64,000 nucleotides of DNA from Candidatus Nomurabacteria bacterium (GTDB taxonomy: Bacteria > Patescibacteriota > Patescibacteriia > UBA1558 > GWA2-36-10), in the NCBI GenBank assembly GCA_020632415.1, contig JACKFO010000002.1, forward strand, positions 322,732 to 386,731, written 5' to 3'. Below the pieces are notes generated by a model. That model had not been told where the DNA came from, ran no database searches, and saw only the letters and a list, made by a program, of their open reading frames with translations. Numbering within the stretch: position 1 is the stretch's first letter; every line of letters starts with the position of its first letter. Shown piece by piece: positions 25,501 through 64,000 of the stretch. A program made the translations under genes and the position numbers.

Positions 25501-25528
25501 CCTCCTCCGTGAAGCGCAATTTCAGCGC

Positions 25529-31338: not shown

Positions 31339-32688
31339 CTAGTCGACGTTCACTGTGCCAACAGCGCCACCGCCTCTGACCTTGATATTGGAGTTTTTCT
31401 TCTCAGCCAAATCTCCAATCTCTTGCAGACAACGCAGACGCTGTTCATAGGTTGCTGTTTCGGGGTTCAGGCCTAAAGCCGCCAAAGCAGCATCAATCTC
31501 TGCTGTGAAAGCCTCGCCATCTGCCTTGCGAAGACGAATCTTACGCTTGGATTCAGACTCAGCGGCGGCCTCAGCATTTTGAGCTTTTTCGATCTCTGGA
31601 TCTCTAGTGGGATCACCAAAGTCCAAAGTATCGAAAGCATGCCCAACGGCCTCCAGCAACTTGCCATTAAGTTCGGTTTGCTTCGAATGATCAAAGGTTA
31701 CGTCCAAACCCTTGACCTGATCGAAACTCATAGAGCTCATGACACTTATCACATCATTGACAATTACTGTGCCAGCTACCTCAACCGAAGTCGACTGATC
31801 CTCAGACGACATCCGCAGAAAACGAGAAGGATGCTGACAAGTAATCACGCCAACTCGAAGATCAATATTGGCAGTAGAGTTGTCTCCTAGCGGCACAAAA
31901 CCAGTCTTGTATTTGCGTTCTATGGCCTCATAACGCAACAGAGTGACGCTATAGAGAAACATCCAAACTGGAATTCCTACTCGGCCCAGATACCAAGGCA
32001 AGATTGGCGCATTTATGTCACTATCACGATGATTGCCGTGATTAGATCCATAAAAATACCAATCGCCAAATTTCTTCCTGATCGGACCTCTCGGAATCAG
32101 AAATGGCCTATTCATGAACTTCGGAACCCAGCGCTCGGTCACTTCCGGCACCATGATCGAACCAATACTCCAGAAAATTGGTAAAGCCAAGAGAAAGACT
32201 GGCTGCCAGATACCAACCATAGCGCAGGTGAAAAAGCCGACAGCAGAAATTACTCCGAACCCGTAAGGTCTGGCCGGAGGCGGAGCTGGTTTTTGACCCT
32301 TGACTACATCACGCTTATCAATGAAAAAGCTGCCGGTCCAAGCTCGGCGGAAAGCGATCACGCCGAAGCCTAGCAAAACAAGGCTGGCGATCAGCTTCCA
32401 CCAAGGGAATTCTCCGTTGAAATTAAGCCAGGAGAAAAGCTGCCAGTTCCACGGCTTCAGCAACAAAGCTGCGTACCAAAGAACAAGTCCAAGCTGCAAA
32501 GCGATCCGAGTCCTCTTATCCTTAGATGTTTTAGGCTTCTTATCCTTGTCCAGATCAACGAGCCAGCTATTCAAGCTCCAGTAGATACTGAGCGGCAAGG
32601 CAAAGAAGATCAGGAAAATAGCGATGCCGTGAACAAATTGTGGGTCTTTCCATCCCACACGGCTGATGATTTTCTCCAAGGCTTCCAT
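31339..32688 (-). CDS. polytopic membrane protein with cytoplasmic C-terminal domain (ORFan, GC-rich cassette F)
   Basis: GC about 50%. RBS GGAGAA. About six TM helices then an approximately 200-aa soluble domain ending in a coiled-coil-like KIRLRKADGEAFTAEIDAALAALG. Confidence 0.55.
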   Translation of the reverse strand: MEALEKIISRVGWKDPQFVHGIAIFLIFFALPLSIYWSLNSWLVDLDKDKKPKTSKDKRTRIALQLGLVLWYAALLLKPWNWQLFSWLNFNGEFPWWKLIASLVLLGFGVIAFRRAWTGSFFIDKRDVVKGQKPAPPPARPYGFGVISAVGFFTCAMVGIWQPVFLLALPIFWSIGSIMVPEVTERWVPKFMNRPFLIPRGPIRKKFGDWYFYGSNHGNHRDSDINAPILPWYLGRVGIPVWMFLYSVTLLRYEAIERKYKTGFVPLGDNSTANIDLRVGVITCQHPSRFLRMSSEDQSTSVEVAGTVIVNDVISVMSSMSFDQVKGLDVTFDHSKQTELNGKLLEAVGHAFDTLDFGDPTRDPEIEKAQNAEAAAESESKRKIRLRKADGEAFTAEIDAALAALGLNPETATYEQRLRCLQEIGDLAEKKNSNIKVRGGGAVGTVNVD

Positions 32689-32786
32689 GGTCGTTCTCCT
32701 TCATTTCGTTTTTTATTCAATCTTGTTTTCGTTGTCGATGAACAGTCGAACAATCGAGCTTGAAAGCTCAAATTATTCAATATAGA

Positions 32787-32815
32787 ATTATATCACATTT
32801 TTACATTTTTGTCAA
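32787..32815 (-). promoter_or_regulatory. consensus promoter TTGACA-17(ends TGA)-TATAAT for the cassette-F gene
   Basis: Minus-strand -35 is the complement of 32810-32815, -10 is the complement of 32787-32792. An approximately 95-nt leader contains the palindrome GAGCTT-ga-AAGCTC (32756-32769). Confidence 0.55.
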
Positions 32816-49732: not shown

Positions 49733-49775
49733 TCTGTCAATATGTATTGACAGAAAAGTAAATATATGATATAAA
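49733..49775 (+). promoter_or_regulatory. promoter TTGACA-17(ends TGA)-TATAAA whose -35 lies inside a perfect 22-bp palindrome TCTGTCAATA-tg-TATTGACAGA
   Basis: Palindrome 49733-49754, -35 49747-49752, -10 49770-49775. A candidate operator overlapping the promoter. Confidence 0.55.
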
Positions 49776-49893
49776 AATACATTAATTACGTTCCTTACAA
49801 AGGAGATTGTTATAGTGTCTAGATTAACTAGATCATAGTTAGTTTGCACACTGTAACAGTCTTTCAACAATCCTCAAACAGGAGAACAAAGCC

Positions 49894-49962
49894 ATGTTCA
49901 AAAAGTGGTTTCCTAATCAAAGCAACCAGAGAGAGTCGACGTCTTCAACGCGAGTTGAGTAA
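49894..49962 (+). CDS. 22-aa upstream peptide (MFKKWFPNQSNQRESTSSTRVE)
   Basis: AGGAG 8 nt upstream. Ends 17 nt before the AAGGAGGG RBS of the next gene. Composition intermediate between host and cassette. Confidence 0.3.
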   Translation: MFKKWFPNQSNQRESTSSTRVE

Positions 49963-49979
49963 GCCTTAAGGAGGGAACA

Positions 49980-50429
49980 ATGAGTCCCAAGACCAAATTT
50001 TACTGCTGGCTGGCGGCGATGACCGTCATCACTCTGACGACTCTTTTTGTTGTCAACGCAGTGAGTGGTAATCCCACATTAGCCATATCCGCCGCATTCG
50101 GCGCGTTCGCTATCACCGTAATAGTCGCGCTCGCTGTCGCCACATCATCTGTCGTGCTCGCCGGACTCATCGCACTCCTGATCGCCAGCGGAGGCGGAGT
50201 GGTCGCGTGCGCTGTCGCACTCCTGATCACCGCCAGAGCCGGAGTGGTCGCGAACGTCGACGCATTCGCCGGACTCGCCGCCGCATCCTTAGCATTCGCC
50301 ATATCCGTCGTAATTATCTTCATCCTTTCTGCTTATAAGAGCACTCTTTCCAAGAGGCATATCCTTCTTTCAATGACGGTGGTATCCATTGTCATCGCCA
50401 CCCCGATGCTCTACCTCGCACTGCAGTAG
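49980..50429 (+). CDS. Ala-rich polytopic membrane protein (149 aa, ORFan, cassette B)
   Basis: GC about 58%. RBS AAGGAGGG. Four to five Ala/Val/Ile-rich TM helices. No known family. Confidence 0.5.
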   Translation: MSPKTKFYCWLAAMTVITLTTLFVVNAVSGNPTLAISAAFGAFAITVIVALAVATSSVVLAGLIALLIASGGGVVACAVALLITARAGVVANVDAFAGLAAASLAFAISVVIIFILSAYKSTLSKRHILLSMTVVSIVIATPMLYLALQ

Positions 50430-50463
50430 AACATTGAAACATTGACTGTTTGAAGACCAAAGT

Positions 50464-50500
50464 CCCTCACGTGCACTATGACGTGAGGGCTTTTATTTTC
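50464..50500 (+). terminator. intrinsic terminator of cassette B; its T-tract overlaps the stop codon of the convergent SDR gene
   Basis: CCCTCACGT-gcactatg-ACGTGAGGG followed by CTTTTATTTTCTTTC. The SDR TAA is the complement of 50493-50495. Confidence 0.6.
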
Positions 50501-51203: not shown

Positions 51204-53881
51204 AAGTTTTTAACTTTAACTTTTTTATAATAAAAAATAAAAATAGTTTTAATGATTTCAATTGCTAAAATTACTCCCACTAAAAAGACCAAAATTACTC
51301 GCCACTCAGACCAAGTCAAAGGTACGGTGTGCAAAGCTTGATTTAAAAACGGTAGATAAATTGCTGCTAATTGTAAAAATAAACCAAAAACTACAGCTAA
51401 ATTTAAATATTGATTTTGAAAAGGATGGGAAGTAAAAATACTGTGTTTTAAACTACGAATACTAAAAACATAAAATAAAGTATCAAGGCCCAAGGCTGTA
51501 AAGACCACAGTACGAGCTAAGTCTTCGTCACCATGTCGCCAAAACCACCAAAAAATCCACAAACTAGATAAAGCGGTAATCAAACTAATAATAAAAATCA
51601 AAAATTTTCCTTCAAAATCAAGCAAAGTTTTTTTGTTTAATTTAGACTTGGCATTCATCGCCTCTTCATCTTCTGGTTCCATAGTCAAAGCCAAATTTGG
51701 CAAACCATCGCTGACCAAGTTGATCCACAAAATCTGCGCTGTGGCAATCGGCAAAGGCCAACCCAAAAGCATCGCTAAAAAAATTATAATAATCTCTGAA
51801 AAACTATCAGACAATAAATATAAAATAACTTTGCGAACATTATCAAAAATAACTCGTCCTTGCCTGATTGCTGTAACGATAGTTTTAAAATTATTGTCCA
51901 ACAAAACTAGATCTGCTACTTCTTTGGCAACATCCGAGCCAGAAGAAACTGCTACGCCGATGTCGGCTGCTTTCAAAGCCGGTGCATCATTGACGCCATC
52001 GCCAGTCATCGAAACGATCTCTCCTTTTTTTTGCCAAGCTTTAACAATTCTTAATTTATCAGCCGGAGTTACCCGAGCATAGACTTGCACTTCATCGATC
52101 TTTTTTTCTAGCTCAAGATCGCTCATTTTTAATAAATCTTCACCGCCCAAAATATTTTTCTGCTCTATTTTTAAACCCAAATCTTCGGCAATTTTACTGG
52201 CTGTAAATTTATTGTCTCCAGTGATAATAATTGTCTTAATCCCGGCTTTTAAAGCAATTTCAATCGTCTCTTTAGTATCTTGACGCAAAGGATCAGAAAG
52301 ACCCCAAAGGCCAACAAAAATCAAATCATGCGGATTTGTCTGACAAATTTTGATATCTTTTTCTTTCCGAGGAATTAATTTATAAGCTCCAGCTAATACT
52401 CGCAAACCTTCGGAACTTAAATCTTGCCAAACCTTCAAAAAATGATCGCGCTTTGCTTTGTTTAGTTTAACTACTTTATTCTGATTTAAATAAAAGTCTG
52501 AAAATTGAAAAACTTTTTCTGGTGCACCTTTGAAAAAAATAATGTCATGTTGATGGTCATAGCTATGTCTAGTGACCATGTACTTGTATTTTGAATCAAA
52601 AGGAATTTCTTCTTTTCTTCTAAAACGATGTTCTAAATCTTTAATTTTTGCCAGCTGTGAACCAAATAATAACAAGGCTTTTTCTGTTGGGCTGCCCAAG
52701 ACCAACCAATCATCGATCGCATCATTAGGATTTTGCACAGCGGCATCATTACACATCATAGCAATTTGCATCAAACGCTCAATTTCTTTATCTTGTTTTT
52801 GATCTTTCCAAGAGCTGTCGCTTAAGCTAAATAAATGCTGACTAGTAAAAATCTTAGTCACTCGCATCTCTCCTTCAGTCAAAGTACCGGTTTTATCGGT
52901 ACAAATCAAAGTCGTTGAACCCAAAGTTTCTGCTGAAACAAGCTTCCTAACCAAACCGTTGTTTTTCAAAATTCGCTGCATGCCAATCGTCAAAATCATT
53001 GTCACGCCGATCACCAAACCTTCAGGGATTGCTGAAACCGCTAAAGCTACGGCGACAGTAAACATCTCTACTATTGGCTGTCCTTCAACTAAACCTAAAA
53101 AGAAAACAAGCAAAGCAATGACAACAATGATTTTGGTAATATTTTTAGCAAATTGATCAAGATTTTTTTGTAAAGGAGTTTTCTCATCTTCTGTTTCTTT
53201 GAGCAAACTAGTAATTTGACCTATTTCTGTTGCCAAGCCAGTATTTGTCACTATTACTCGCGCGCGACCTTCCACAACCAAAGTGCCCATAAAAACAGAA
53301 TTACTACGTTCAGCTAAAACCGTTCCTTTTTCTAAAACTTTTAGATTTTTTTCCTGCGGCCAAGACTCTCCAGTCAAAGTTGCCTCATTGACTCTAAAAT
53401 TATTTATCTCTAACAATCTTCCATCAGCCGGAACTCTGTCTCCGGCTTGTAAAACAATCAGATCACCAGGAACCAAAAATCTGCTTTCAATTTTTTGTTC
53501 CTGTCCGTCACGAATCACTACACTTTCTTGTTTAACTACTTTGTTTAGTTTTTGTAGCGACTGATTAGCTTTTTTCTCCTGCCAAAAACCAATCACCACA
53601 TTCAAAAGTACTGCCGCAAAAATAACATAAGCGTCTACAAACTCTCCAAAAACAAAGCTAATCAAAGCTGCAATTATCAAAACATAAACCAAAGCACTTT
53701 TGAATTGCGACCAAAACAAACGCCAAGCAGAAAATTTTTCTGCTTGCGCTAAAACATTAAGGTCATGACTATCTTGGCGCTTTTCTGCTTCTTTTTGTTT
53801 AAGGCCAAATTTTGTAGCTTCTAAATTCTGAAAAATTTTATCTAAAGCCAAATGATGCCAAACGATTTTTGTTTTGTGCAT
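51200..53881 (-). CDS. P-type cation-transporting ATPase (P2-type, Ca2+/Mg2+-like)
   Basis: DKTGTLT phosphorylation site, TGDGVNDAPAL hinge, PEGL motif, 10 TM. Start taken at MHKTKIV (track ORF from 53929). Confidence 0.88.
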   Translation of the reverse strand: MHKTKIVWHHLALDKIFQNLEATKFGLKQKEAEKRQDSHDLNVLAQAEKFSAWRLFWSQFKSALVYVLIIAALISFVFGEFVDAYVIFAAVLLNVVIGFWQEKKANQSLQKLNKVVKQESVVIRDGQEQKIESRFLVPGDLIVLQAGDRVPADGRLLEINNFRVNEATLTGESWPQEKNLKVLEKGTVLAERSNSVFMGTLVVEGRARVIVTNTGLATEIGQITSLLKETEDEKTPLQKNLDQFAKNITKIIVVIALLVFFLGLVEGQPIVEMFTVAVALAVSAIPEGLVIGVTMILTIGMQRILKNNGLVRKLVSAETLGSTTLICTDKTGTLTEGEMRVTKIFTSQHLFSLSDSSWKDQKQDKEIERLMQIAMMCNDAAVQNPNDAIDDWLVLGSPTEKALLLFGSQLAKIKDLEHRFRRKEEIPFDSKYKYMVTRHSYDHQHDIIFFKGAPEKVFQFSDFYLNQNKVVKLNKAKRDHFLKVWQDLSSEGLRVLAGAYKLIPRKEKDIKICQTNPHDLIFVGLWGLSDPLRQDTKETIEIALKAGIKTIIITGDNKFTASKIAEDLGLKIEQKNILGGEDLLKMSDLELEKKIDEVQVYARVTPADKLRIVKAWQKKGEIVSMTGDGVNDAPALKAADIGVAVSSGSDVAKEVADLVLLDNNFKTIVTAIRQGRVIFDNVRKVILYLLSDSFSEIIIIFLAMLLGWPLPIATAQILWINLVSDGLPNLALTMEPEDEEAMNAKSKLNKKTLLDFEGKFLIFIISLITALSSLWIFWWFWRHGDEDLARTVVFTALGLDTLFYVFSIRSLKHSIFTSHPFQNQYLNLAVVFGLFLQLAAIYLPFLNQALHTVPLTWSEWRVILVFLVGVILAIEIIKTIFIFYYKKVKVKNL

Positions 53882-53922
53882 GTTTATATTATACCATAAA
53901 ATGCAGTAATTCATATCTACTA

Positions 53923-53951
53923 TTGACAAATAAATACTTTTATGATAATAT
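53923..53951 (+). promoter_or_regulatory. promoter TTGACA-17(ends TGA)-TAATAT for the cassette-C gene
   Basis: -35 53923-53928, -10 53946-53951. RBS GGAG at about 54007. Confidence 0.5.
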
Positions 53952-54015
53952 TCAAAATCTAAAATTGTCCTTTTCGCTTTTCAATAACCAATCACCTCAA
54001 GCAACCGGAGCAAAA

Positions 54016-54558
54016 ATGCAAGCCTTTCATGAGTGGTTCGTCCACGAACTCGAGCAACGGCAGAACACGATCGACAATCCCTGTCCGATCGAAGTCGAAG
54101 TCAATGAATCGGGTACGGTACTCGGTACCCTACCCGACAACCTGAAGCCCCTCTTCTTCCTGATGCTCGACCTGATCGATGAGCGCAACGAGTCCGCCAC
54201 CGCGCTCCACGACTGGATCGTGGAACACCCCGGATTCCACCCGGCACACCCCGAAGATGCCAAGCCGGAACTGATCGGGGAATTCCAGGAGAAGAAGATC
54301 AATCACCGAGTCGCCTGCGACAAGCTGAAGACGATCACGTCCTACTTCTGGAGCAGCATCCACCACATCTTCCCCGACAGCCACAACCACAACAAGATGG
54401 AGGTCTGCAAGGACTGGCAGATCGTCTGCGGAGATGATGAAGGTGACATCAAGATCGATATCATCGGCATCGGCGGCATTCCCTCCGACTTCGTCGGTGG
54501 CTCCACCGTCGATCCCTTCGGCGACCTCCTCGGCAGCTTCTTCCGTCGAGGACACTGA
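54016..54558 (+). CDS. acidic His/Cys-containing cytoplasmic ORFan (180 aa, cassette C)
   Basis: GC about 57%, E. coli-like codons. Start trimmed to the SD-preceded ATG (MQAFHEWFVHELEQ...). No known domain. Confidence 0.5.
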   Translation: MQAFHEWFVHELEQRQNTIDNPCPIEVEVNESGTVLGTLPDNLKPLFFLMLDLIDERNESATALHDWIVEHPGFHPAHPEDAKPELIGEFQEKKINHRVACDKLKTITSYFWSSIHHIFPDSHNHNKMEVCKDWQIVCGDDEGDIKIDIIGIGGIPSDFVGGSTVDPFGDLLGSFFRRGH

Positions 54559-54590
54559 CGCCTCAACGCAGCAGAAATGATTGGCCACAG

Positions 54591-54626
54591 CCCCAAGTGC
54601 ATCACGCGCTTGGGGTTATTTTTTTA
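54591..54626 (+). terminator. intrinsic terminator of cassette C
   Basis: CCCCAAG-tgcatcacgcg-CTTGGGG followed by TTATTTTTTT. Confidence 0.55.
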
Positions 54627-54691
54627 AAACAAAATATAATACATTGATTTTTTTCTTAAAAATAAGTAAGATTAGCTTATAAATTTTAATT

Positions 54692-56515
54692 ATGTCTACT
54701 TTAGAACAAATAAAATTAGTTTTACAGAAAAATATTTCTGAAATCCTAAATCAACAGCTAGAATTGGATCAAATAGGACTTGATCTTCCGCCAAATGAAA
54801 TGTTTGGTGATTATGCTTTTTCTTGTTTTGAATTAGCAAAAATTCTAAAAATCAACCCTCAAGAAGTCGCTGAAAAATTAAACAACAAGTTTATTGCTGA
54901 TCAAACTATTCTAGCCACCAAAAATGCCGGGCCATATTTAAATTTAGAACTAAATCCACAATTTTTAGCCAAAGAAACACTCCAGGAAATCAGTCAAACA
55001 AAAAACTTTGGCCAAAACACTTTTGGTCATGGTAAAAAAGTCTTGATTGAATTTTCCGGACCAAACACCAACAAACCTCAACATTTGGGTCATGTCCGTA
55101 ACGATATTTTAGGACAAGCAATGGTCAATCTTTATCGTGCTTGTGGTTTTGAAGTAATTGCTTGCAATATTATCAATGATCGTGGAATTCATATTGTCAA
55201 AAGCATGTTGGCTTACCAAAAATGGGGCGACAATCAAACTCCAGAAAGTAGTAAAATTAAAGGTGATCATTTTGTAGGTAATTTTTATGTCAAATTTGAG
55301 CAAGCTTTAAAAGCTGAACGAGATGATTATTATCAAAAAAATAAAATCGATCTGACCAAACTAAAAGCCCAAGAACAACGTCAAGCAGAAGATGCTTTCT
55401 TACAACAATCGCCACTAATGCAAGAAGCTCACGAAATGCTAAAAAAATGGGAAGCCGAAGATCCAGAAACACGAAATCTTTGGTCAAAAATGAATTCTTG
55501 GGTTTATCAAGGTTTTGAGGAAACCTATCAAGCTCTTGGCATTAAATTTGACCAAGTTTATTATGAAAGCCAAACTTATCTTTTGGGCAAAGAAATTATC
55601 AAACTTGGTTTAGAAAAAAAAGTTTTCTTTCAAAAAGAAGATAATTCAATTTGGATTGATTTAAGCTCAGAAAACTTAGATCAAAAATTGGTTTTACGTG
55701 CTGATGGCACTTCTGTTTATATTACTCAAGATTTAGGCATGGCAAAACAACGCCATGATCAATACAAGTTTGATCAAATGATCTATGTCGTGGCCAATGA
55801 GCAAAATTATCATTTTCAAGTACTATTTGCGACTCTCAAAGCGATTGGTTTTCCTTGGGCAGAAAATTTACACCATTTAAGCTACGGAATGGTCAATCTT
55901 CCTGATGGTAAAATGAAATCTCGTGAAGGCAAAGTTGTTGATGCTGATGATCTTATTTTGGAAATGAAAAATAAAGCCAGCGAAGTAATGGCAAAAGCTA
56001 CTAAACAAGTAGCAAGCTCTGTTGAACAAAAAATAAAAAGTTCCGAACAAGTTGGTTTGGGCGCTCTCAAATTTTTCTGTCTTTCAACTAGCCCACAAAA
56101 AGATATCACTTTTAATCCAACAGAAAGCATTTCTTTTGATGGTTATACTGGACCGTTTATTCAATACACGCACGCTAGAATTAATAATATTTTAACTAAA
56201 GCTGAAAAAATCCCACAATTTGCAGATTTAAATTTTAATCTAGAAATCTCCGCTGAAGAAAAAAAATTATTAAAAATTTTACTCAATTTTCCAGATAGCA
56301 TCAAAAATAGCGCTCTTGATCACAACCCAGCGACCCTTACTCAATACCTATTTGACTTAGCTAAAACTTTTAACAATTTCTACCAACAACATTCGGTTTT
56401 ACAAGCCGAGAGTCCTGATTTACAACAATTCAGATTATTTTTGGCAAATGCTACCAAACAAATCTTAAGCTCTGGCTTAGAACTCTTAGGCATCGAAGCC
56501 CCAGAGACAATGTAA
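54692..56515 (+). CDS. argS: arginine--tRNA ligase
   Basis: Class I HIGH-type motif (PQHLGHVRN). C-terminal DALR anticodon-binding domain ending in the characteristic ...LLGIEAPETM. Confidence 0.88.
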   Translation: MSTLEQIKLVLQKNISEILNQQLELDQIGLDLPPNEMFGDYAFSCFELAKILKINPQEVAEKLNNKFIADQTILATKNAGPYLNLELNPQFLAKETLQEISQTKNFGQNTFGHGKKVLIEFSGPNTNKPQHLGHVRNDILGQAMVNLYRACGFEVIACNIINDRGIHIVKSMLAYQKWGDNQTPESSKIKGDHFVGNFYVKFEQALKAERDDYYQKNKIDLTKLKAQEQRQAEDAFLQQSPLMQEAHEMLKKWEAEDPETRNLWSKMNSWVYQGFEETYQALGIKFDQVYYESQTYLLGKEIIKLGLEKKVFFQKEDNSIWIDLSSENLDQKLVLRADGTSVYITQDLGMAKQRHDQYKFDQMIYVVANEQNYHFQVLFATLKAIGFPWAENLHHLSYGMVNLPDGKMKSREGKVVDADDLILEMKNKASEVMAKATKQVASSVEQKIKSSEQVGLGALKFFCLSTSPQKDITFNPTESISFDGYTGPFIQYTHARINNILTKAEKIPQFADLNFNLEISAEEKKLLKILLNFPDSIKNSALDHNPATLTQYLFDLAKTFNNFYQQHSVLQAESPDLQQFRLFLANATKQILSSGLELLGIEAPETM

Positions 56516-56522
56516 CTTTTTC

Positions 56523-56561
56523 ACCAAGGGGAACAAATTTCCCCTTGGCATCCCCTTTTTA
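56523..56561 (+). terminator. argS terminator formed by palindromic element copy 2
   Basis: CCAAGGGGA-acaaatt-TCCCCTTGG followed by catCCCCTTTTTA. Confidence 0.5.
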
Positions 56562-56610
56562 TTGACAAGAAAAGAGAAATACCTTATAATCAAGTTCGTA
56601 ATTTTATAAT

Positions 56611-56687
56611 GCGCCTATAGCTCAGCCTGGTAGAGCAGTTGCCTTTTAAGCAAACGGTCGAGGGTTCGAATCCCCCTGGGCGCACCA
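56611..56687 (+). tRNA. tRNA-Lys (anticodon UUU)
   Basis: GCGCCTATAGCTCAGCCTGGTAGAGCAGTTGCCTTTTAAGCAAACGGTCGAGGGTTCGAATCCCCCTGGGCGCACCA. Close to E. coli tRNA-Lys. One T-stem mismatch noted. Confidence 0.8.
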
Positions 56688-56811
56688 CTCACTTAAAATT
56701 AATCAAGGTGCTCTGACCTTGTTTTTTTATTGACAAAATAAATAAGTAGTATAAACTTAATAAGTAAAATAAGTCCTTCCACCCGTCCATCTTAAACCAA
56801 GGAGGTATGCC

Positions 56812-56898
56812 ATGCATGCCAACCACGCCCCGCCCACGATGAGCACCGATCTCGTTTCGCCCCTGCGCCGTCAGCTCAAGAGCACCGAAATCGTCTAG
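56812..56898 (+). CDS. 28-aa hydrophilic peptide (MHANHAPPTMSTDLVSPLRRQLKSTEIV), cassette D unit 1
   Basis: GC-rich. AAGGAGG 6 nt upstream. Own promoter-like TTGACA at about 56743. Followed by a strong terminator. Confidence 0.35.
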   Translation: MHANHAPPTMSTDLVSPLRRQLKSTEIV

Positions 56899-56935
56899 AG
56901 CCACCAAGGCAGACGAGGCTATTGAGCTTCACCTA

Positions 56936-56967
56936 CGGCTCGCGCCACGCGCGAGCCGCTTTTTTTA
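56936..56967 (+). terminator. intrinsic terminator CGGCTCGCGC-cac-GCGCGAGCCG plus T7 (copy 1)
   Basis: 10-bp GC stem with a 3-nt loop. Identical to the copy at 57246-57278. Confidence 0.65.
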
Positions 56968-57102
56968 TCCAAAGTTTGACAAAATTAGAAATATATCATA
57001 AAATAAAAACTCAAGGAGTGTGAGTATTCTCAAGACTGACTTGGGAATCTCCCTCAACAACCATCAACCGTGGCTGTCCGCAAGGACGAAAGGAGCCGGT
57101 CT

Positions 57103-57201
57103 ATGAAGACCCCCTGCACCGCCATCATCACCCAGAAGAGCACGGAGATCGTGCAGACCACCGAGAAGAACGGCCAGCTCAAGGCCATCGAGCAGATCTA
57201 G
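57103..57201 (+). CDS. 32-aa hydrophilic peptide (MKTPCTAIITQKSTEIVQTTEKNGQLKAIEQI), cassette D unit 2
   Basis: GC-rich. RBS AAGGAG. Shares KSTEIV with unit 1. Promoter TTGACA-17-TAAAAT at 56975-57003. Approximately 95-nt GC-rich leader. Confidence 0.35.
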   Translation: MKTPCTAIITQKSTEIVQTTEKNGQLKAIEQI

Positions 57202-57245
57202 CTCCAGCGGGAGTAAATCACTCGAAGCCAAGAAGCTGAAACACC

Positions 57246-57278
57246 CACGGCTCGCGCCACGCGCGAGCCGCTTTTTTT
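57246..57278 (+). terminator. intrinsic terminator CGGCTCGCGC-cac-GCGCGAGCCG plus T7 (copy 2)
   Basis: 33-nt near-identical repeat of the unit-1 terminator, with one mismatch in the 5' flank. Confidence 0.65.
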
Positions 57279-57366
57279 ATTGCATAAATTGTGTTTAAAC
57301 TGTCAATAAAATTGCCTTGAAAAAAGCTAAAAAATAAGGTAAGCTAACTCTACTAAAACAGGCTTT

Positions 57367-58782
57367 ATGGACAAAATGCCCCCACAAAATCTAGAAGCAG
57401 AAAGCTCATTATTGGGTGCTTTGTTGATCGACAAAGAAGCAATTATCAAGGTTGCAGACGTAATTAATGCTCGTGATTTTTATAGCAACAAACACGGCAT
57501 GATTTATGAAACCATTTTAGACCTATTAGAACAACATGAGCCAGTTGACATTGTTTCGGTTTCCAATCGTTTAAATGAAAAAAAACAACTAGAAACTATC
57601 GGCGGAAAAACTTATATTGCCGAACTTACTGCTGCGGTTCCAAATTCTTCACACGTCAAATCTTACGCTAATATCATTCGCAAAAAATCTATTTTGCGTC
57701 AGCTAGAATCTGCTGCTGCTGAAATTTCAGAAATTTCTTTTTCGGAAGTTGATGACGTTGATAAAACTTTGGATAAAGCTGAACAAAAACTTTTTGCTAT
57801 CTCTCAAAATTCACTCAAACAAAATTTTGTTCAAGTCAAAAATATTTTGACCGACACTTTTAATCGTATCGATGAATTACATAAATCTGGTGGTGCCGGT
57901 GTCCGCGGCGTTCCTTCTGGCTACCCAGACATTGATCGACTTTTATCTGGCTTCCAAAAATCAGACTTAATAATTTTAGCTGCTCGACCTTCGGTCGGTA
58001 AAACAACTTTTGCTCTTGATTTGGTCAGAAATATTGCGATCAAATCCAAAGTACCAGTCGGCATGTTTTCTTTGGAAATGTCCAAAGAACAGCTAGTAGA
58101 CAAATTACTTGCCGCTGAAGCTGGCGTTGATCTCTGGCGAATGCGTACTGGAAAACTTTCTGACAAAGAGGAAAACGATGATTTTCCGCGCATTGGACGA
58201 GCAATGGGAGTCTTATCTGAAGCACCAATTTTTATTGATGATTCCGCTAATTCAAATATCTTAGAAATTCGAACCAAGGCTAGACGTCTAAAAATGGAAC
58301 ATGGTTTAGGTTTTTTGGTGATTGACTATTTACAATTAATGGAAGGGCGAGACAGAGAAAATCGAGTTAATGAAATCTCTGAAATTTCTCGAGCTTTAAA
58401 ACAATTAGCCAAAGAGATTGACGTACCAGTACTTGCTTTGTCTCAATTATCTCGTGCTGTGGAAAACCGAAGTCCTGCTATTCCAAAACTAGCTGATTTA
58501 AGAGAATCAGGCTCAATTGAACAAGACGCTGACATTGTCATGTTTATCTATCGTAAATCAAAAGATAAGAGTCGTGACTGTCCAGAAGATGAAAAAAATT
58601 TGGCAGAAATTCACGTTGAAAAACATCGTAACGGACCAACTGGCATTGTCAATTTATTCTTTGATGAAAACAAGGTTACTTTCCGTAGCGTCGAAAGGGC
58701 CCAAAATGTCGGTACTCCGCCACCAGAAGAAATTGGCCCACCAATACAAACCAATGGCTGGCAAGATGCTCCTAATCAATAA
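57367..58782 (+). CDS. dnaB: replicative DNA helicase
   Basis: N-terminal PPQNLEAESSLLGALL. RecA-like core with Walker A ARPSVGKTTFAL. Full length, no intein. Confidence 0.92.
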   Translation: MDKMPPQNLEAESSLLGALLIDKEAIIKVADVINARDFYSNKHGMIYETILDLLEQHEPVDIVSVSNRLNEKKQLETIGGKTYIAELTAAVPNSSHVKSYANIIRKKSILRQLESAAAEISEISFSEVDDVDKTLDKAEQKLFAISQNSLKQNFVQVKNILTDTFNRIDELHKSGGAGVRGVPSGYPDIDRLLSGFQKSDLIILAARPSVGKTTFALDLVRNIAIKSKVPVGMFSLEMSKEQLVDKLLAAEAGVDLWRMRTGKLSDKEENDDFPRIGRAMGVLSEAPIFIDDSANSNILEIRTKARRLKMEHGLGFLVIDYLQLMEGRDRENRVNEISEISRALKQLAKEIDVPVLALSQLSRAVENRSPAIPKLADLRESGSIEQDADIVMFIYRKSKDKSRDCPEDEKNLAEIHVEKHRNGPTGIVNLFFDENKVTFRSVERAQNVGTPPPEEIGPPIQTNGWQDAPNQ

Positions 58783-58812
58783 ACATTAATTAGCAAAATA
58801 ATAAATAAAATT

Positions 58813-59103
58813 ATGTTCAATAAATTAAAACAATTCAACGACTTAAGAAAACAAGCTAACGATCTAAAAAGCATGTTAGCCAAAGAAAGTGTTGAAGTAG
58901 AAAATAAAGGCGTCAAGATTATCATGGATGGTAATCAAGAAATAAAAACTTTTGAAATAAAACCTGAAATGCTAAAAGCTGAACACAAAGCTGATTTGGA
59001 AAAACAAATTAAAGAAGCTTTCGCTGAAAGCATCAAAAAAGTCCAGCGTAAGATGGCCATGAAAATGCAACAATCTGGCAATTTTAATTTACCAGGAATG
59101 TAA
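58813..59103 (+). CDS. ybaB: YbaB/EbfC nucleoid-associated protein
   Basis: 96 aa. LKQ...KGVKIIMDGNQEIKTFEIKPEML...LPGM matches the YbaB pattern. Upstream of recR as is usual. Confidence 0.85.
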   Translation: MFNKLKQFNDLRKQANDLKSMLAKESVEVENKGVKIIMDGNQEIKTFEIKPEMLKAEHKADLEKQIKEAFAESIKKVQRKMAMKMQQSGNFNLPGM

Positions 59104-59117
59104 ATAACAAAAAAACA

Positions 59118-59714
59118 ATGGCTCATTTGCCAAACTTTATCCAAAAACTAATCGATGAGTTCGATAAACTTCCGGGAATTGGTCCTAAAACCGCTTCCCG
59201 TTTAGTTTTTGATTTGTTGCACCGGAAAGAAGATATCAAAATTTTAGCAGACAACCTCAATGCTGCTTATCAACAAATTCATTTGTGCCCCAAATGTTTT
59301 AATCTCTCCGACGATGGTTTATGTAAAATATGTCGCAATCCAGAAAGAAATACCAAGCTAATTGCTGTTGTTGCTCACAACCAAGATGTTGAAGCTGTTG
59401 AAAAAACCAGCAAATTTACTGGCACCTATCATTTACTCAATGGCCTACTTAGTCCACTAGAAGGAATCACTCCTGATCGTCTAAAAATCAATGAACTGGA
59501 AAAAAGAATCAGCGAAGAAGAAGTAGCAGAAGTAATTTTGATTTTAGATCAAAGTATGGAAGGAGAGGCAACGGCTATTTATTTGAGCAAGCTTCTCAAA
59601 AAATATCCTCTAAAAATCAGCCAACTGGCTCGCGGCATTCCAATGGGAGCCAACATTGAATATACTGATGAAGTTACGCTCTCCTCGGCCTTGGAAAACA
59701 GAAAAGAATTATAA
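59118..59714 (+). CDS. recR: recombination protein RecR
   Basis: HhH (KLPGIGPKTASRLVFDLL), C4 zinc finger (CPKCFNLSDDGLCKIC), Toprim domain. Confidence 0.9.
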   Translation: MAHLPNFIQKLIDEFDKLPGIGPKTASRLVFDLLHRKEDIKILADNLNAAYQQIHLCPKCFNLSDDGLCKICRNPERNTKLIAVVAHNQDVEAVEKTSKFTGTYHLLNGLLSPLEGITPDRLKINELEKRISEEEVAEVILILDQSMEGEATAIYLSKLLKKYPLKISQLARGIPMGANIEYTDEVTLSSALENRKEL

Positions 59715-59745
59715 CAAAAAACCACTCTTGCGAGTGGTTTTTAAA
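59715..59745. terminator. bidirectional terminator between recR and rplU
   Basis: AACCACTC-ttgc-GAGTGGTT flanked by A6 and T5. Confidence 0.65.
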
Positions 59746-59756
59746 TTGAATTTAAA

Positions 59757-60074
59757 CTAAGCGCTAATCTTTTCAATCTTAATTTCTGCTTTATGTTGAC
59801 GATGGCCAACGGTTTTCTTATAACGAGTTTTAGCTTTATACTTAACGACCGTTACTTTACGATCTTTAAAATTCTTGACCAAAGTAGCTTCTACTTTAGC
59901 GCCTTTAATAATTGGATCGCCTAAAGTAACATTATCTTTATCATCAGCGATTAACAAAACATCATCAAAAACTACTTTTTCACCATCTTGTTTGGTTGGT
60001 AATTTTTCAATGCTTAAAACATCACCTTGTTTTACTTGATATTGTTTCCCGCCGGTTTTAATTACTGCTAACAT
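59757..60074 (-). CDS. rplU: 50S ribosomal protein L21
   Basis: MLAVIKTGGKQYQVKQGDVLSIEKL is the canonical L21 sequence. Track ORF trimmed from 60116. Not adjacent to rpmA in this genome. Confidence 0.88.
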   Translation of the reverse strand: MLAVIKTGGKQYQVKQGDVLSIEKLPTKQDGEKVVFDDVLLIADDKDNVTLGDPIIKGAKVEATLVKNFKDRKVTVVKYKAKTRYKKTVGHRQHKAEIKIEKISA

Positions 60075-60182
60075 ATTTTTTATAATTTTTCTAAAAAAGT
60101 ACTCATAGATTAGCAAAAAATCATTATATTGTCAACCTCAGGTATAAAAATATCCCAATTGCCCTGCATAAAATCAAATGGG

Positions 60183-60211
60183 TTGACAAAATATATATTA
60201 TATGATATAAT
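60183..60211 (+). promoter_or_regulatory. consensus promoter TTGACA-17(ends TGA)-TATAAT for the cassette-E gene
   Basis: -35 60183-60188, -10 60206-60211. RBS GGAGG at 60250-60254. Confidence 0.55.
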
Positions 60212-60260
60212 ACCAAAGAATTGGACATTTTCACAACAAAAGCAGCAGTTGGAGGAAATC

Positions 60261-60737
60261 ATGAATTGGCGAAAAATTGCACTTCTGTGCCTACTTCTTG
60301 CTTTGCCGATGTGGATGCTGATCCGTTCTATGCTGCCTTCGCAGTCAGTTATGGAACAGCTCCAGGAGATCGCCGATCGAACTCCCATTCACTTCGCTTT
60401 GTTGGTCGATGGACAGAGAATCGAGTATTTCGGCTTTGCCATCGATACCAGCACAGCAGCGGATACGAGTTTCGTCGAAAATCTCTACTTCTACGATCAA
60501 GTCGTGATCTGCAACATTCCAGGAGAGAACCAGTACCTCGAAGTACTCAAGGACACCCTGGATACGATCGACCCTCTGGGCACAGTCAAAGATCACGCTC
60601 CATTGGTCGGAGGCGACTACATCATCGAAGCCTACGATGCTTGGACGGATTCCCTCAAGTTCAGAGCGCGAATTCGCGCCGAACACATTGACGGAGAACC
60701 GTACATCTTCGATGATCAGAACCTTGTCAACAACTGA
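60261..60737 (+). CDS. secreted ORFan (158 aa, cassette E)
   Basis: GC about 55%. Signal peptide MNWRKIALLCLLLALPMW. Start trimmed to the SD-preceded ATG. No known domain. Confidence 0.5.
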   Translation: MNWRKIALLCLLLALPMWMLIRSMLPSQSVMEQLQEIADRTPIHFALLVDGQRIEYFGFAIDTSTAADTSFVENLYFYDQVVICNIPGENQYLEVLKDTLDTIDPLGTVKDHAPLVGGDYIIEAYDAWTDSLKFRARIRAEHIDGEPYIFDDQNLVNN

Positions 60738-60758
60738 CGCCCCCAATCCCCCCGGATC

Positions 60759-60810
60759 GATCCCGGCACAACACAGCAGCAGCTGTCGCGTGTCGGGATC
60801 ATTTTTATTT
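60759..60810 (+). terminator. intrinsic terminator of cassette E; its T-tract overlaps the stop codon of the convergent sufU
   Basis: GATCCCGGCACA...TGTCGGGATC followed by ATTTTTATTT. The sufU TAA is the complement of 60809-60811. Confidence 0.45.
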
Positions 60811-61207
60811 ACATCAAATCATCCCAAGTTCGCAAGGGATTTTTTTGTTCGGCTAAAATAATATTTTGCACTGTGATCAGGCCCAACAAAACACATTTAT
60901 AGCGCCGCTCACCAACTGGTAACCCCAACATATCCAGTAAGCTCTGATAATTAATAGCTAAAACTTCTGTAATATTTTGACCAATCAACTTTTCACTTAA
61001 AATTGACATTGCCGCGACCGAAATCGCACAACCATTAGCTTCAAATTTTAAGTCCTCTATCTGATCATCTTTAATTCTCAGATCAACGGCAAGTTGGTCG
61101 CCACAAGAGCGATTCATTTGTTTGCCAGAAATTTTTGGCTCAGCAAGACGACCGTGATTGCGTGGCTGTTTATAATGTTCGATAATATTTTGAGCGTAAA
61201 GATCCAT
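60809..61207 (-). CDS. sufU: SufU/IscU-type Fe-S cluster scaffold
   Basis: Three conserved Cys (RSCGD, ANGCAIS) plus the SufU-type insertion. Confidence 0.85.
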   Translation of the reverse strand: MDLYAQNIIEHYKQPRNHGRLAEPKISGKQMNRSCGDQLAVDLRIKDDQIEDLKFEANGCAISVAAMSILSEKLIGQNITEVLAINYQSLLDMLGLPVGERRYKCVLLGLITVQNIILAEQKNPLRTWDDLM

Positions 61208-61212
61208 ATGCG

Positions 61213-62430
61213 TTAAATAAATTTCTGATTAATTTTTTCTAATTCCCTAATAAAAATATCAATTTCTTCTTTAGTGTTATAAAAAGCAAGACTTGCTCTC
61301 ACAGTCGCGGGCACTTGCAAAAAATCATGTAAAGGTTGTGTGCAGTGCTGACCAGCTCGAAGAATAATTCCTGCCTCTCCTAATAAATCACCAACATCAT
61401 GAGCATGTACATTTTTTAAATTAAAAGCAAGGCTGGACAAATGATTTTCTACTATTTGTGGACCATAAATTTCCACGAAATCTAAATTTTGTAATTGTTG
61501 CAATAAATATTCTGTCAGTTCTTTTTCAATTTTTGCAATCTGATCCAAACCAAAATCATTGACAAAATCTATCGTCGCCCCATAAGCCACTACATCAGCA
61601 ATATTTGGCGTACCAGCCTCAAACTTATGTGGTAATTCATTAAGTGTAAAGTGATCTAAAAATACATCGGCAATCATATCACCGCCACCCAAAAATTCTG
61701 GCATTTCTTTTAACAATTCTTCACCGGCATATAAAACGCCAACGCCAGTTGGACCAAACATTTTATGAGCTGAAAAAGCTACGAAATTTGCACCTAAATT
61801 TTGGACATCAATTTTCTGATGAGCGATAACTTGCGCCGCGTCTAACAAAACTTTAATTCCTTTGCTTTGCGCTAGCTTGATTAGATCACTGATCTCATGA
61901 ACATTGCCCAAAGTATTTGAAGCCATTTGCAGGCTCAAAAATTTCACACCTGCTTGAGAAATTAATTCTTTGGCCTGTTTTAAGTCTAAATTTCCTTCTG
62001 GATCCAAAGTAATAAAAACTAATTCAATGCCAATTTCTTTTTTTAATTGTAACCAAGGTACGATATTTGAATGATGCTCAAGTATCGACAAAACTACCTT
62101 ATCACCTGCTTTTAAAAAATGCTGGCCATAAGTTTTGGCTACCAAATTAATACTCTCGGTAGTATTACGAGTAAAAACTATTTCCTTTTTATTTTTAGCG
62201 TTGATAAATTTTGCTACTTTTTCTCTAGTTGCCTCATGCATTTCAGTAGCTCTATCAGCTAAAGGATTTAAACCGCGATGAATATTAGAATTGTGCTTCT
62301 GATAAAAATCAACTAAAGCATCGATCATCACCTGTGGTTTTTGGGTAGTTGCAGCATTATCAAAATAAACCAGAGGCCGATCATTAATCTTGGTTTCTAA
62401 AATCGGAAACAGACTACGAATTTTGTTCAT
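61213..62430 (-). CDS. sufS: cysteine desulfurase (SufS, class V aminotransferase)
   Basis: PLP lysine SAHKMFGPTGVG. Catalytic Cys loop RAGQHCTQP. Confidence 0.9.
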   Translation of the reverse strand: MNKIRSLFPILETKINDRPLVYFDNAATTQKPQVMIDALVDFYQKHNSNIHRGLNPLADRATEMHEATREKVAKFINAKNKKEIVFTRNTTESINLVAKTYGQHFLKAGDKVVLSILEHHSNIVPWLQLKKEIGIELVFITLDPEGNLDLKQAKELISQAGVKFLSLQMASNTLGNVHEISDLIKLAQSKGIKVLLDAAQVIAHQKIDVQNLGANFVAFSAHKMFGPTGVGVLYAGEELLKEMPEFLGGGDMIADVFLDHFTLNELPHKFEAGTPNIADVVAYGATIDFVNDFGLDQIAKIEKELTEYLLQQLQNLDFVEIYGPQIVENHLSSLAFNLKNVHAHDVGDLLGEAGIILRAGQHCTQPLHDFLQVPATVRASLAFYNTKEEIDIFIRELEKINQKFI

Positions 62431-63238
62431 AAAATTTTATTTTATTCAATAAATTATCTAATCTATTCTTAATTTCCGGATGATTAATTTTTACAGTTAA
62501 TTTATCTAGCAAACTTTGCCAGATTAATTTTTTGATCTGAGCTTCTGTCAAAGCACGATTTTGTAAATAAAAACTTTGTTCTGGACTTAAATGACTAATT
62601 TTTGCGGCATGCGAGGCTTTGACTTGATTTGGCTCAACGGACAAACCAGGCGTTAAATTAACTTTAGCCTCTTTTGACCAAATAAAAGCTTCCATTTCCA
62701 AACGGGCTTCTGTATTAATCGCTGCTTTTTTAATCAATAAATCACTAAAATAATTAATCCTGGCTCGATCATCAGCCAAAGTTATGATTTTAATACTTCC
62801 TTCGCCAGCCGGATAAAGAAAATTATTATTTTCTTGCAAACTAAAATGCAAATCATTATTCAAATAAACAAAAACTTGATGCTCTAAATGACTATGACTA
62901 TCTAAATACTGATTTAAACTAAGCTCAGCTGGACTTTGTAAATAAAAATAATAATTATGTAAAACACTATTAATTCCTAATTTGATAACTCTTGCTTCAG
63001 AAAAAAGACTGCCTTGTTGATTTAAAACAAAAACATAGTCTACCAAAACATTATCTTTGATAATAATTTCTGTTTTAAGTTTTTGCTTAAGCTGACTTTC
63101 TTGATCAATCAATTCAAAAACTAAACAGTCTTCACTTAAAACAATTTGTTCTTGCTGTTTTCTGCTACTCTGATCAATGATAATTATTTTTTTATTCAAC
63201 ATATAATTATCCAACGCTCCCTTCCATTTCCAGTTCAA
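62414..63238 (-). CDS. sufD: Fe-S cluster assembly protein SufD (short form)
   Basis: C-terminal SufB/SufD signature ASHAAKISHLSPEQSFYLQNRALTEAQIKKLIWQSL. 274 aa, shorter than E. coli SufD. Confidence 0.65.
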   Translation of the reverse strand: MNWKWKGALDNYMLNKKIIIIDQSSRKQQEQIVLSEDCLVFELIDQESQLKQKLKTEIIIKDNVLVDYVFVLNQQGSLFSEARVIKLGINSVLHNYYFYLQSPAELSLNQYLDSHSHLEHQVFVYLNNDLHFSLQENNNFLYPAGEGSIKIITLADDRARINYFSDLLIKKAAINTEARLEMEAFIWSKEAKVNLTPGLSVEPNQVKASHAAKISHLSPEQSFYLQNRALTEAQIKKLIWQSLLDKLTVKINHPEIKNRLDNLLNKIKFYEQNS

Positions 63239-64000
63239 TCATTCGATTCATTTCTACTGCGTATTCTAGTGGCAATTCTCGAGTAATTGGCTCAATAAAA
63301 CCATTGACAATCATCTTAGCTGCCTCTTCTTCAGAAAGCCCGCGTGAACGTAAATAAAAAATATCTGTTTCTGAAATTTTTCCAGCCCTTGCTTCGTGAG
63401 CAATGGTTGCCGTTGGATTATCAATCTTCATTTGCGGTATAGTTTCTGTTTTTGAATCATCATCAAGAAGCAAAGCATCGCAATTAACCGTTGCTTTGAT
63501 ATTATCTGCTTTGCCTTTAACTTCTAACAAACCGCGGTAAATAGATTTTCCACCGCCACGGCTAATACTTTTCATCACTATATTTGAACTGGTTTCTGAT
63601 GCTAGGTGAATTACTTTTGCGCCAGTGTCTTGAATTTGCCCAGAGTTAGCAAAGGCCAAGCCCAAATGATCAGCCGAAGCTCCTCGGCCAAGTAAAACAG
63701 AACAAGGATAAAGCATGGTCACATTGGAGCCAAAATTTCCGCCAACCCATTCCATGTGAGCATTTTCAGAAACCATTGCTCGTTTGGTATTCAAATTATA
63801 AGCATCTTTACTCCAACTTTCGACACTACTATAACGAAATCGTGCATTATCTTTGACGTAAATTTCTACACAACCAGCATGTAAAGAATCAACACCATAA
63901 CGTGGCGCCGAACAACCCTCGATATAATGTCCTTGAGCATCACTTTCGATGATAATTAAAGTATGTTCAAATTGTCCCATACCTTTGGCATTCATTCGAA
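63207..64000 (-). CDS. sufB: Fe-S cluster assembly protein SufB (N-terminal part beyond the window end)
   Basis: Highly conserved SufB C-terminal two thirds (...GHYIEGCSAPRY...AHEARAGKISETDIFYLRSRGLSEEEA...). The reading frame remains open to position 64000. Confidence 0.85.
   Translation of the reverse strand, partial: RMNAKGMGQFEHTLIIIESDAQGHYIEGCSAPRYGVDSLHAGCVEIYVKDNARFRYSSVESWSKDAYNLNTKRAMVSENAHMEWVGGNFGSNVTMLYPCSVLLGRGASADHLGLAFANSGQIQDTGAKVIHLASETSSNIVMKSISRGGGKSIYRGLLEVKGKADNIKATVNCDALLLDDDSKTETIPQMKIDNPTATIAHEARAGKISETDIFYLRSRGLSEEEAAKMIVNGFIEPITRELPLEYAVEMNRMIELEMEGSVG

Follow-up and report, generated by a model that had tools for sequence, protein, structure and literature searches.

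What does the G+C-rich DNA between the tRNA-Lys and dnaB genes of a patescibacterial chromosome encode? We addressed this question in a stretch of 64,000 nucleotides (nt), called the window throughout, from a metagenome-assembled genome (MAG) filed as 'Candidatus Nomurabacteria bacterium'. The window has a G+C content of 36% and carries the housekeeping genes of a reduced bacterium, whereas the element under study, cassette D (positions 56730-57280), has 53-55%. We conclude that cassette D probably consists of two stand-alone, paralogous small-protein genes, a reading that we prefer while holding it with some reserve.

Two tandem units with their own signals

Cassette D contains two tandem units, each with a sigma-70-like promoter, a strong Shine-Dalgarno (SD) sequence, a short hydrophilic open reading frame (ORF) and a terminator. 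The SD sequences were read from the sequence and from a scan for ORFs preceded by such sites.

56730-56757, plus strand: unit 1 promoter, TTGACA (56730-35), 16-nt spacer, TAAACT (56752-57), 10/12 consensus matches
56799-56805, plus strand: unit 1 SD, AAGGAGG, with the ATG 6 nt downstream
56812-56898, plus strand: ORF1, 28 aa, MHANHAPPTMSTDLVSPLRRQLKSTEIV, with two copies of [K/M]ST[D/E][L/I]V
56930-56968, plus strand: unit 1 intrinsic terminator, copy 1 of a 39-nt repeat, stem-loop at 56936-56958 followed by T7 (hairpin and T-run 56936-56966)
56976-57004, plus strand: unit 2 promoter, TTGACA (56976-81), 17-nt spacer, TAAAAT (56999-57004), 11/12 consensus matches
57016-57055, plus strand: unit 2 leader hairpin P1, from folding, homologous to positions 357-396 of the related contig L003
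57075-57088, plus strand: unit 2 leader hairpin P2 (UGUCC-GCAA-GGACG), immediately upstream of the SD and kept in L003 (416-429)
57090-57095, plus strand: unit 2 SD, AAGGAG, with the ATG 7 nt downstream
57103-57201, plus strand: ORF2, 32 aa, MKTPCTAIITQKSTEIVQTTEKNGQLKAIEQI
57242-57280, plus strand: unit 2 intrinsic terminator, copy 2 of the 39-nt repeat, stem-loop at 57248-57270 followed by T7 (hairpin and T-run 57248-57278)

The initial annotation of this DNA, made from the letters alone, had proposed two modules with these four elements, and all of them were present within a few bases of where it had placed them. The promoters and terminators are consensus predictions only. Since the same promoter consensus, at 11-12/12, also precedes tRNA-Lys, tRNA-Gln and several ordinary genes, those of cassette D would be of the host type. 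Both terminators have a 10-bp G+C stem, the loop CAC and then T7, with a predicted energy of -20.9 kcal/mol. Their regions are identical at 38 of 39 positions (one mismatch), 34 of them in a row, and the 23-nt stem-loop pattern, with up to three mismatches allowed, had no match in 100 shuffles of the window. The modules had also been called paralogous or duplicated, which holds for the latter half of each ORF and for the 3' ends and does not extend to the 5' leaders, which are unrelated and about 47 nt long in unit 1 versus about 92 nt in unit 2.

Coding signature of the two ORFs

A frame-specific bias in third-position G/C (GC3) began and ended with both ORFs, and the untranslated regions (UTRs) showed no periodicity. 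In ORF2 every codon ends in G or C (32/32), against 16/31 and 7/15 in the same phase of the flanking UTRs (binomial P 5e-9). In ORF1 this is true of 23/28 codons, against 6/16 in the 5' UTR and 4/12 in the 3' UTR, again in the same phase (P 0.003); each P value was computed against the G+C content of the unit itself. The host-type (housekeeping) genes of the window have GC3 values of 0.15-0.36, about 0.25.

The peptides have a common layout: a variable N-terminus, a first motif [K/M]ST[D/E][L/I]V, then a linker whose last residues are QL, a second motif and the stop codon. ORF1 is built from MHANHAPPT, MSTDLV, SPLRRQL and KSTEIV, and ORF2 from MKTPCTAIITQ, KSTEIV, QTTEKNGQL and KAIEQI. The KSTEIV motif that had been noticed in both peptides is indeed common to them, and ORF1 has a third copy, MSTDLV. 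At the DNA level the KSTEIV copies of the two ORFs differ by three synonymous changes (ACC/ACG, GAA/GAG and GTC/GTG), while the remaining copies, including MSTDLV, vary by the conservative exchanges D/E, L/I, V/I and S/A. In six-frame translations of the window and 187 loci (~1.6 Mb), [KMRQ]ST[DE][ILV][VI] occurred three times, always in ORF1 or ORF2, and a composition-preserving shuffle gave p ~0.015 for the match between the peptides. Both ORFs carry the marks of translated sequence and look coding. The suggestion of stand-alone paralogous small-protein genes gains from this combination of private promoter, SD and terminator, GC3 periodicity confined to the ORFs, and motif changes that are conservative or synonymous.

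Properties of the peptides and searches for homologues

Both peptides are hydrophilic, with grand average of hydropathy (GRAVY) values of -0.39 and -0.38, and both are rich in Thr, Ser and Gln. Their maximum 15-residue hydropathy values, 0.03 and 0.39, stay below 0.5, so neither is expected to form a transmembrane helix. ORF1 contains no Cys and ORF2 one. AlphaFold2, run without an alignment, predicted one helix over residues 4-30 of ORF2 with a predicted local distance difference test score (pLDDT) of 91.5, which is weak evidence for so short a peptide.

The initial annotation had advised a BLAST of the peptides, and searches of this type returned no homologue or family match. An exact look-up in a collection of 15 billion proteins found neither mini-ORF. 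ORF2, searched as a 43-aa N-terminally extended form, had no candidate among 5.8 billion protein clusters, ORF1 being too short for this search, and the 44-aa ORF that follows the homologous L003 leader (described below) retrieved only itself. No family in Pfam, PHROGs, PADLOC or NCBIfam matched the two peptides or five proteins from the larger cassettes of the window; a ComEA helix-hairpin-helix match in these searches (14.9 bits against a cut-off of 53) was treated as chance. A sequence search of the PDB with ORF2 found nothing, and local searches of the fetched loci and the remaining window, by tblastn with the peptides and by blastn with the cassette, yielded nothing above noise. Gene callers rarely predict ORFs under ~30 aa, so the lack of peptide homologues is weak evidence.

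In being small, transcribed alone and present as tandem paralogues, the genes bear a superficial likeness to loci for type I toxins or for precursors of bacteriocins or of ribosomally synthesized and post-translationally modified peptides (RiPPs), the last of which had been suggested for cassette D. It is nevertheless very unlikely that these peptides are toxic or are such precursors. Unlike the products of type I toxin-antitoxin systems they are not hydrophobic, and the locus has no credible promoter for an overlapping or adjacent antisense RNA: the sole promoter-like site on the minus strand (9/12, 57024-56995) overlaps neither ORF. No Cys-rich or hydrophobic core and no leader/core pattern, double-glycine site, signal peptide or known RiPP leader motif was recognised, peptides this short being hard to judge in that respect. 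The neighbours are argS, tRNA-Lys and dnaB, with no modification, transport or immunity genes nearby, and the families of the four databases above are likewise silent.

A conserved leader RNA and the possibility of RNA function

It had been suggested that the G+C-rich leader of unit 2 could fold, and its predicted hairpins are kept in a second genome. The leader (57015-57105) is homologous to that of unit 1 in L003 (356-442), and the ORFs behind the two are unrelated. In both, P1 starts within ~5 nt of the transcription start predicted from the -10 box, and has the apex CAAG-NNUGA-CUUG, and P2 (GUCC-N4-GGAC) abuts the SD. In the window the apical loop of P1 is ACUGA (57035-39), with GGAG in the 5' strand of the hairpin and CUCC in its 3' strand. 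All 19 leader pairs form in both sequences, with four compensatory double changes and two one-sided changes; P1 accounts for 14 of these pairs (14/14 formed in both), four with compensatory changes. When the 3' partners were shifted by 1-3 columns as a control, only 34-55% of cells paired. This covariation is suggestive only, as it comes from two sequences from which the structure was itself derived.

A covariance search, also recommended in the initial annotation, found no third copy of the leader in ~1 Mb of related loci with a model built from the two, and the leader pattern had no match in JGI metagenomes. Against Rfam 15, only tRNAs reached the gathering score; cassette D scored 9-17.5 bits at best, far below family thresholds, with no match even at E<=10. 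A switch between the SD and an anti-SD was dropped, the alternative pairing being predicted for L003 and not for the window. In our reading P1 would serve either to stabilise the 5' end of the mRNA or to bind a protein. Unit 1 has no comparable hairpin.

These results bear on the chief alternative account of cassette D, in which the units are small regulatory or dual-function RNAs whose structured RNA is active and whose mini-ORFs are incidental or secondary. We consider it unlikely, if worth taking seriously. In its favour, the unit-2 leader is the only part of the cassette conserved in another genome, with compensatory changes and without conservation of the ORF. Among relatives, contig L004 has a transcript of ~300 nt with an ORF of only 9 codons and L185 a unit with a leader of ~350 nt, and G+C-rich islands in AT-rich genomes are a classic mark of structured RNAs. 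The whole units fold more stably than shuffled sequences (z -3.6 and -4.3), but these scores include the terminator hairpin, and the unit-2 leader alone reaches only -1.4. RNA structure also cannot explain GC3 values of 100% and 82% that are restricted to the ORFs. Strong SD sites at optimal spacing from start codons, and motif copies whose differences are synonymous or conservative, speak against the account as well. The lack of any Rfam match and of a third leader copy points the same way.

Genomic setting and assembly support

Cassette D is set among housekeeping genes (argS, tRNA-Lys, dnaB, ybaB and recR). The immediate surroundings of cassette D are as follows.

54692-56515: argS, first gene in the local order argS, tRNA-Lys, dnaB
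56611-56687, plus strand: tRNA-Lys, upstream neighbour of cassette D
56704-56728, plus strand: tRNA-Lys terminator, left border of cassette D, hairpin CAAGGT-N6-ACCTTG then T7
57281-57366, plus strand: region upstream of dnaB, right border and outside cassette D, 75-80% conserved in contigs L003, L004, L005 and L074
57367-58782: dnaB, third gene in the local order

The source MAG contig is 842,326 bp long (locus tags H6761_*), and searches anchored on DnaB place the host in the Patescibacteria (candidate phyla radiation). ArgS (MCB9802750) and DnaB (MCB9802751) have consecutive protein accessions, so both mini-ORFs are unannotated.

The regular order of promoter, SD, ORF and terminator, together with the duplicated terminator, looks engineered, and a synthetic insert had been among the initial suggestions. 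We give practically no credence to a synthetic construct or an assembly artefact. Logan contigs of run SRR12358676, assembled independently of the MAG, match the window exactly on both sides (L002 = 51982-56964; L001 = 57251-63782), and each is on record in two samples. L002 ends in terminator copy 1 and L001 starts inside copy 2, as a short-read assembler would break on meeting the 39-nt repeat. Unrelated MAGs from lakes and other metagenomes carry similar units at the same locus. The DNA of cassette D is natural.

Turnover of small units in the same gap of related genomes

The nearest relatives, from lake and other metagenomes, have DnaB proteins 81-92% identical to that of the window; the 90%-identity clusters of DnaB and of ArgS have one member each, and the contig of the 92%-identical DnaB starts 74 nt upstream of dnaB. 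Where the gap between tRNA-Lys and dnaB could be compared, its contents were as follows.

L188 and L189: only the tRNA trailer; the tRNA-Lys trailer and terminator run directly into the dnaB promoter
L083 (same sequence as L187): one unit, 21-codon ORF, GC3 0.67
L004: one unit of ~300 nt, the one with the 9-codon ORF
L003: two units, with ORFs of 44 aa (GC3 0.98) and 29 aa (GC3 0.97)
L183-L185: a 59-aa HTH_17 gene and a long unit with a 33-codon ORF (GC3 0.91 in L185, where the leader is ~350 nt)
JGI contig: genes of 186 aa and 329 aa

The mini-ORFs of at least 21 codons in these relatives all have a good SD and GC3 values of 0.67-0.98, and by peptide comparison and tblastn none of the relatives' mini-ORFs resembles ORF1 or ORF2. 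Since its contents change from genome to genome, the gap is, as judged from these sequences, a hotspot at which small G+C-rich units turn over between related species. The ORFs themselves are not conserved in frame in relatives, which weakens any claim of conserved function. The coding signature stands all the same, since mini-ORFs in the relatives, though different, show it too.

Several further observations concern this site. The 59-aa HTH_17 (excisionase/AlpA-like) gene in L183, L184 and L185 (2817-2996), from a relative with 88% DnaB identity, reaches a GC3 of 0.78, carries a promoter and terminator of its own and has no integrase nearby. Relative to dnaB, the tRNA-Lys genes of L003 (151-227) and L005 (5645-5721) are inverted in comparison with that of the window (56611-56687), which indicates rearrangement at the hotspot. 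In several relatives a moderately G+C-rich trailer of 90-130 nt separates the tRNA-Lys gene from its terminator (L083 3465-3600, L188 45-135, L189 1-80, L004 5359-5450, and L005 5500-5645 on the minus strand). These trailers begin alike (GACU-N-CG), those of L083 and L188 have CGGCGAGCUCAG in common, and the trailer, which is absent from the window genome, might be a small RNA made by co-transcription. Across genomes, the promoters of distinct cassettes (window 24665-24735, L003 690-760, L185 3075-3145) have in common CTTGACAA...TA..(C)TACTTTRTTA, which reaches past the hexamers and across the predicted start. It may be a portable module of promoter and initial transcript, or an operator.

Larger G+C-rich genes of the window

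At least six larger genes of the window, with their class making up about 1 in 7 of its genes, are of a similar kind. Each combines an AT-rich consensus promoter and a leader with an SD, a G+C-rich ORF (GC3 0.52-0.81) and a hairpin terminator.

23530-24513, minus strand: larger G+C-rich gene, cassette 23476-24650
24754-25500, plus strand: larger G+C-rich gene, cassette 24680-25580
31339-32688, minus strand: larger G+C-rich gene, cassette 31339-32815
49980-50429, plus strand: larger G+C-rich gene, cassette 49748-50490
54016-54558, plus strand: larger G+C-rich gene, cassette 53924-54625
60261-60737, plus strand: larger G+C-rich gene between rplU and nifU, cassette 60183-60805

Translations inspected by eye suggested that several encode a signal-peptide-like or anchor-like hydrophobic N-terminus, or several hydrophobic segments. 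The genes at 23530-24513 (minus) and 24754-25500 (plus) form a divergent G+C-rich pair with signal-peptide-like N-termini. The product of one of them, 327 aa long, has no more than five homologues in a set of 1.84 billion representative proteins. Three of these could be placed, on contigs L163, L164, L180 and L181, the last belonging to the Parcubacteria assembly GCA_000991205.1. Both genes of the pair have homologues in the same divergent arrangement in L163 (1-1726) and L164 (1-1894), and in L181 (2894-4900) the homologue of the 327-aa protein has a divergent G+C-rich neighbour. In these three contigs, which were long enough for the surroundings to be read, the surroundings are AT-rich, the genes of the pair have GC3 values of 0.57-0.71, and the cassettes have a private promoter and terminator.

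A homologue of cassette C with 33% identity lies upstream of argS in L004, where it exceeds its neighbours in GC3. Homologues or positional equivalents of cassette E occur between rplU and nifU in L183 (6888-7406), L185 (6826-7359), L186 (3038-3439), L187 (5859-6386) and L188 (3212-3604). A gene at this position was found in every relative examined and was always GC3-enriched compared with its neighbours; tblastn detected only that of L185 (36% identity), and that of L188 has a lipoprotein-like N-terminus. Overall, homologues in AT-rich Patescibacteria that are 28-52% identical, or that lie at matching positions, still have raised GC3. Their promoter and terminator architecture is retained where the flanks could be read, and their syntenic position only in part. 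Where DnaB is 86-88% identical, the proteins of the larger cassettes are only 33-36% identical. This argues for genes that evolve fast yet keep their composition, and that would have been maintained rather than recently imported.

The composition of cassette D could also be that of recent foreign DNA, that is, remnants of mobile elements from a high-G+C donor left beside tRNA-Lys, possibly as functionless passengers. We rate this origin as improbable, more so than a purely or mainly RNA-level function. High-G+C organisms typically show GC3 near 100%, the site lies beside a tRNA gene and differs among relatives, and the HTH_17 gene of L185 and the inverted tRNA-Lys of two relatives could belong to such a history. 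However, the repeat scan of cassette D found no tRNA 3'-end repeat, no flanking direct repeats and no inverted repeats other than the terminators, and no integrase is present. Integration of a tRNA-targeted island was dropped, as the tRNA 3' end is not repeated. The promoters are AT-rich and of the host type. Blastn of cassette D against phage and plasmid records gave no match, matches of a looser leader pattern and of the terminator pattern to viral contigs in IMG/VR fell by chance inside unrelated coding regions, and the extended ORF2 was unmatched in the cluster search described above. Larger cassettes of like composition are inherited at syntenic positions, and their raised GC3 at 28-52% identity speaks against recent import from a high-G+C donor.

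Two further observations come from elsewhere in the window. A 22-codon ORF, MFKKWFPNQSNQRESTSSTRVE (49895-49963), with an SD-like site, lies just upstream of the gene for a 149-aa G+C-rich membrane protein in the same transcription unit, either as an upstream ORF, perhaps, or as a further mini-gene. In addition, coding regions contain two separate 45-nt tandem duplications, at 1115-1204 (gene for an Arg/Gly-rich protein, minus strand) and at 50170-50259 (gene for the 149-aa membrane protein).

Comparison with known systems

Phage 'morons' are autonomous transcription units inserted between conserved genes (PMC3594210). The units of cassette D are like them in having their own predicted promoter (10/12 and 11/12) and factor-independent terminator, a composition that differs from the flanks (GC3 0.82 and 1.00 versus about 0.25), and a position between genes that are directly adjacent in the relative L188, as accessory, lineage-specific content. 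They differ in being chromosomal, with housekeeping flanks and without a match in phage records or PHROGs, those in IMG/VR being chance. Furthermore, the larger members of the class are vertically inherited at fixed positions and keep their odd composition, unlike recent imports. Being chromosomal and part of a vertically inherited class, the units are not members of the moron category.

Some bacterial small proteins (up to 50 aa) are made from short transcripts that are monocistronic or have a dual function, examples being RNAIII/delta-haemolysin, SR1/SR1P and SgrS/SgrT. The predicted transcripts of cassette D are similar in size (~200-270 nt), in their structured UTRs, in having one ORF of ~30 codons with an SD and an intrinsic terminator, and in having been missed by annotation. 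They have no sequence relation to these systems, and their codon composition is opposite to that of the rest of the genome. The leaders of ompA and aprE carry 5'-terminal hairpins that stabilise bacterial mRNAs, and P1 resembles these in lying within ~5 nt of the predicted 5' end and in being structurally kept in L003, with a second small hairpin abutting the SD. The comparison is limited by the start site of unit 2, which is predicted from the -10 box only, and does not apply to unit 1.

The units recall integron gene cassettes in that their ORFs are small, have an unusual composition and mostly lack homologues, and in their turnover at a hotspot. In contrast to those cassettes they have their own promoters and terminators, lack attC and an integrase in the flanks, and are scattered rather than arrayed. 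They are also unlike leader-peptide attenuators, as sequence inspection and the repeat scan found no alternative partner for the 5' arm of either terminator, hence no competing antiterminator, and what follows is the unit 2 promoter or the conserved dnaB promoter region rather than a regulated gene in the same transcript. Nor does cassette D match the curated covariance models of the known cis-regulatory RNA and small RNA families of Rfam 15.

Proposed role and significance

Our best guess is that cassette D specifies stable small mRNAs encoding helical accessory peptides of the lineage's G+C-rich repertoire. In each unit a host-type sigma-70 promoter and a strong intrinsic terminator would define a monocistronic mRNA, of ~200 nt for unit 1 and ~270 nt for unit 2, translated from the strong SD into a hydrophilic, probably helical peptide of ~3-3.5 kDa. 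The 5' hairpin of unit 2, the strong 3' hairpins and a U-poor, G+C-rich body would make these mRNAs long-lived. We infer that the peptides may be accessory modulators that bind a partner protein within the cell, perhaps during interaction with a host or with phages. The units would be part of a class of fast-evolving, GC3-rich genes that are dispersed between AT-rich housekeeping genes, carry a private promoter and terminator each, and lack identifiable homologues beyond the lineage.

Several points weigh against this interpretation. The leader is conserved in L003 and the ORF behind it is not, which fits a function at the RNA level at least as well, and the L004 unit offers only its 9-codon ORF. 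Host-type genes of the window seldom use G/C-ending codons, which makes efficient translation less than obvious. A single sequence underlies the helix predicted for ORF2, which is weak evidence. None of the searched collections contained a homologue of either peptide, ORF2 having been queried as the 43-aa extended form, and even the closest relatives, with DnaB 81-92% identical, do not conserve ORF1 or ORF2.

Bacterial mutation is generally AT-biased, and for this reason a lasting enrichment of GC3 in the fastest-evolving genes needs an explanation. Translational optimisation was rejected as the cause, the ribosomal genes rplU and rplI having a GC3 of ~0.22. Candidate causes are selection on the mRNA, codon-based regulation and biased gene conversion at recombination hotspots. 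A literature search on G+C-rich gene classes in candidate phyla radiation bacteria found no paper describing the pattern.

Taken alone, the two mini-genes are of modest importance and add to the known under-annotation of small proteins. A bolder reading, which we consider unlikely if worth pursuing, is that the lineage maintains a set of genes distinguished by their base composition. These would be independent transcription units with ORFs made up almost entirely of G/C-ending codons, in a genome whose housekeeping genes favour A/T-ending ones. Selection or biased gene conversion would hold the bias against AT-biased mutation despite the very fast evolution of the proteins, and composition would itself be functional. 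The mini-genes of cassette D, with GC3 of 82-100%, would then be its extreme members. If composition is functional, it might make mRNAs resistant to AU-directed RNases, or might make their translation subject to a particular tRNA or state of tRNA modification, for example one tied to attachment to the host cell. The G+C-rich class also offers natural candidates for the host-interaction repertoire of uncultivated epibiotic bacteria.

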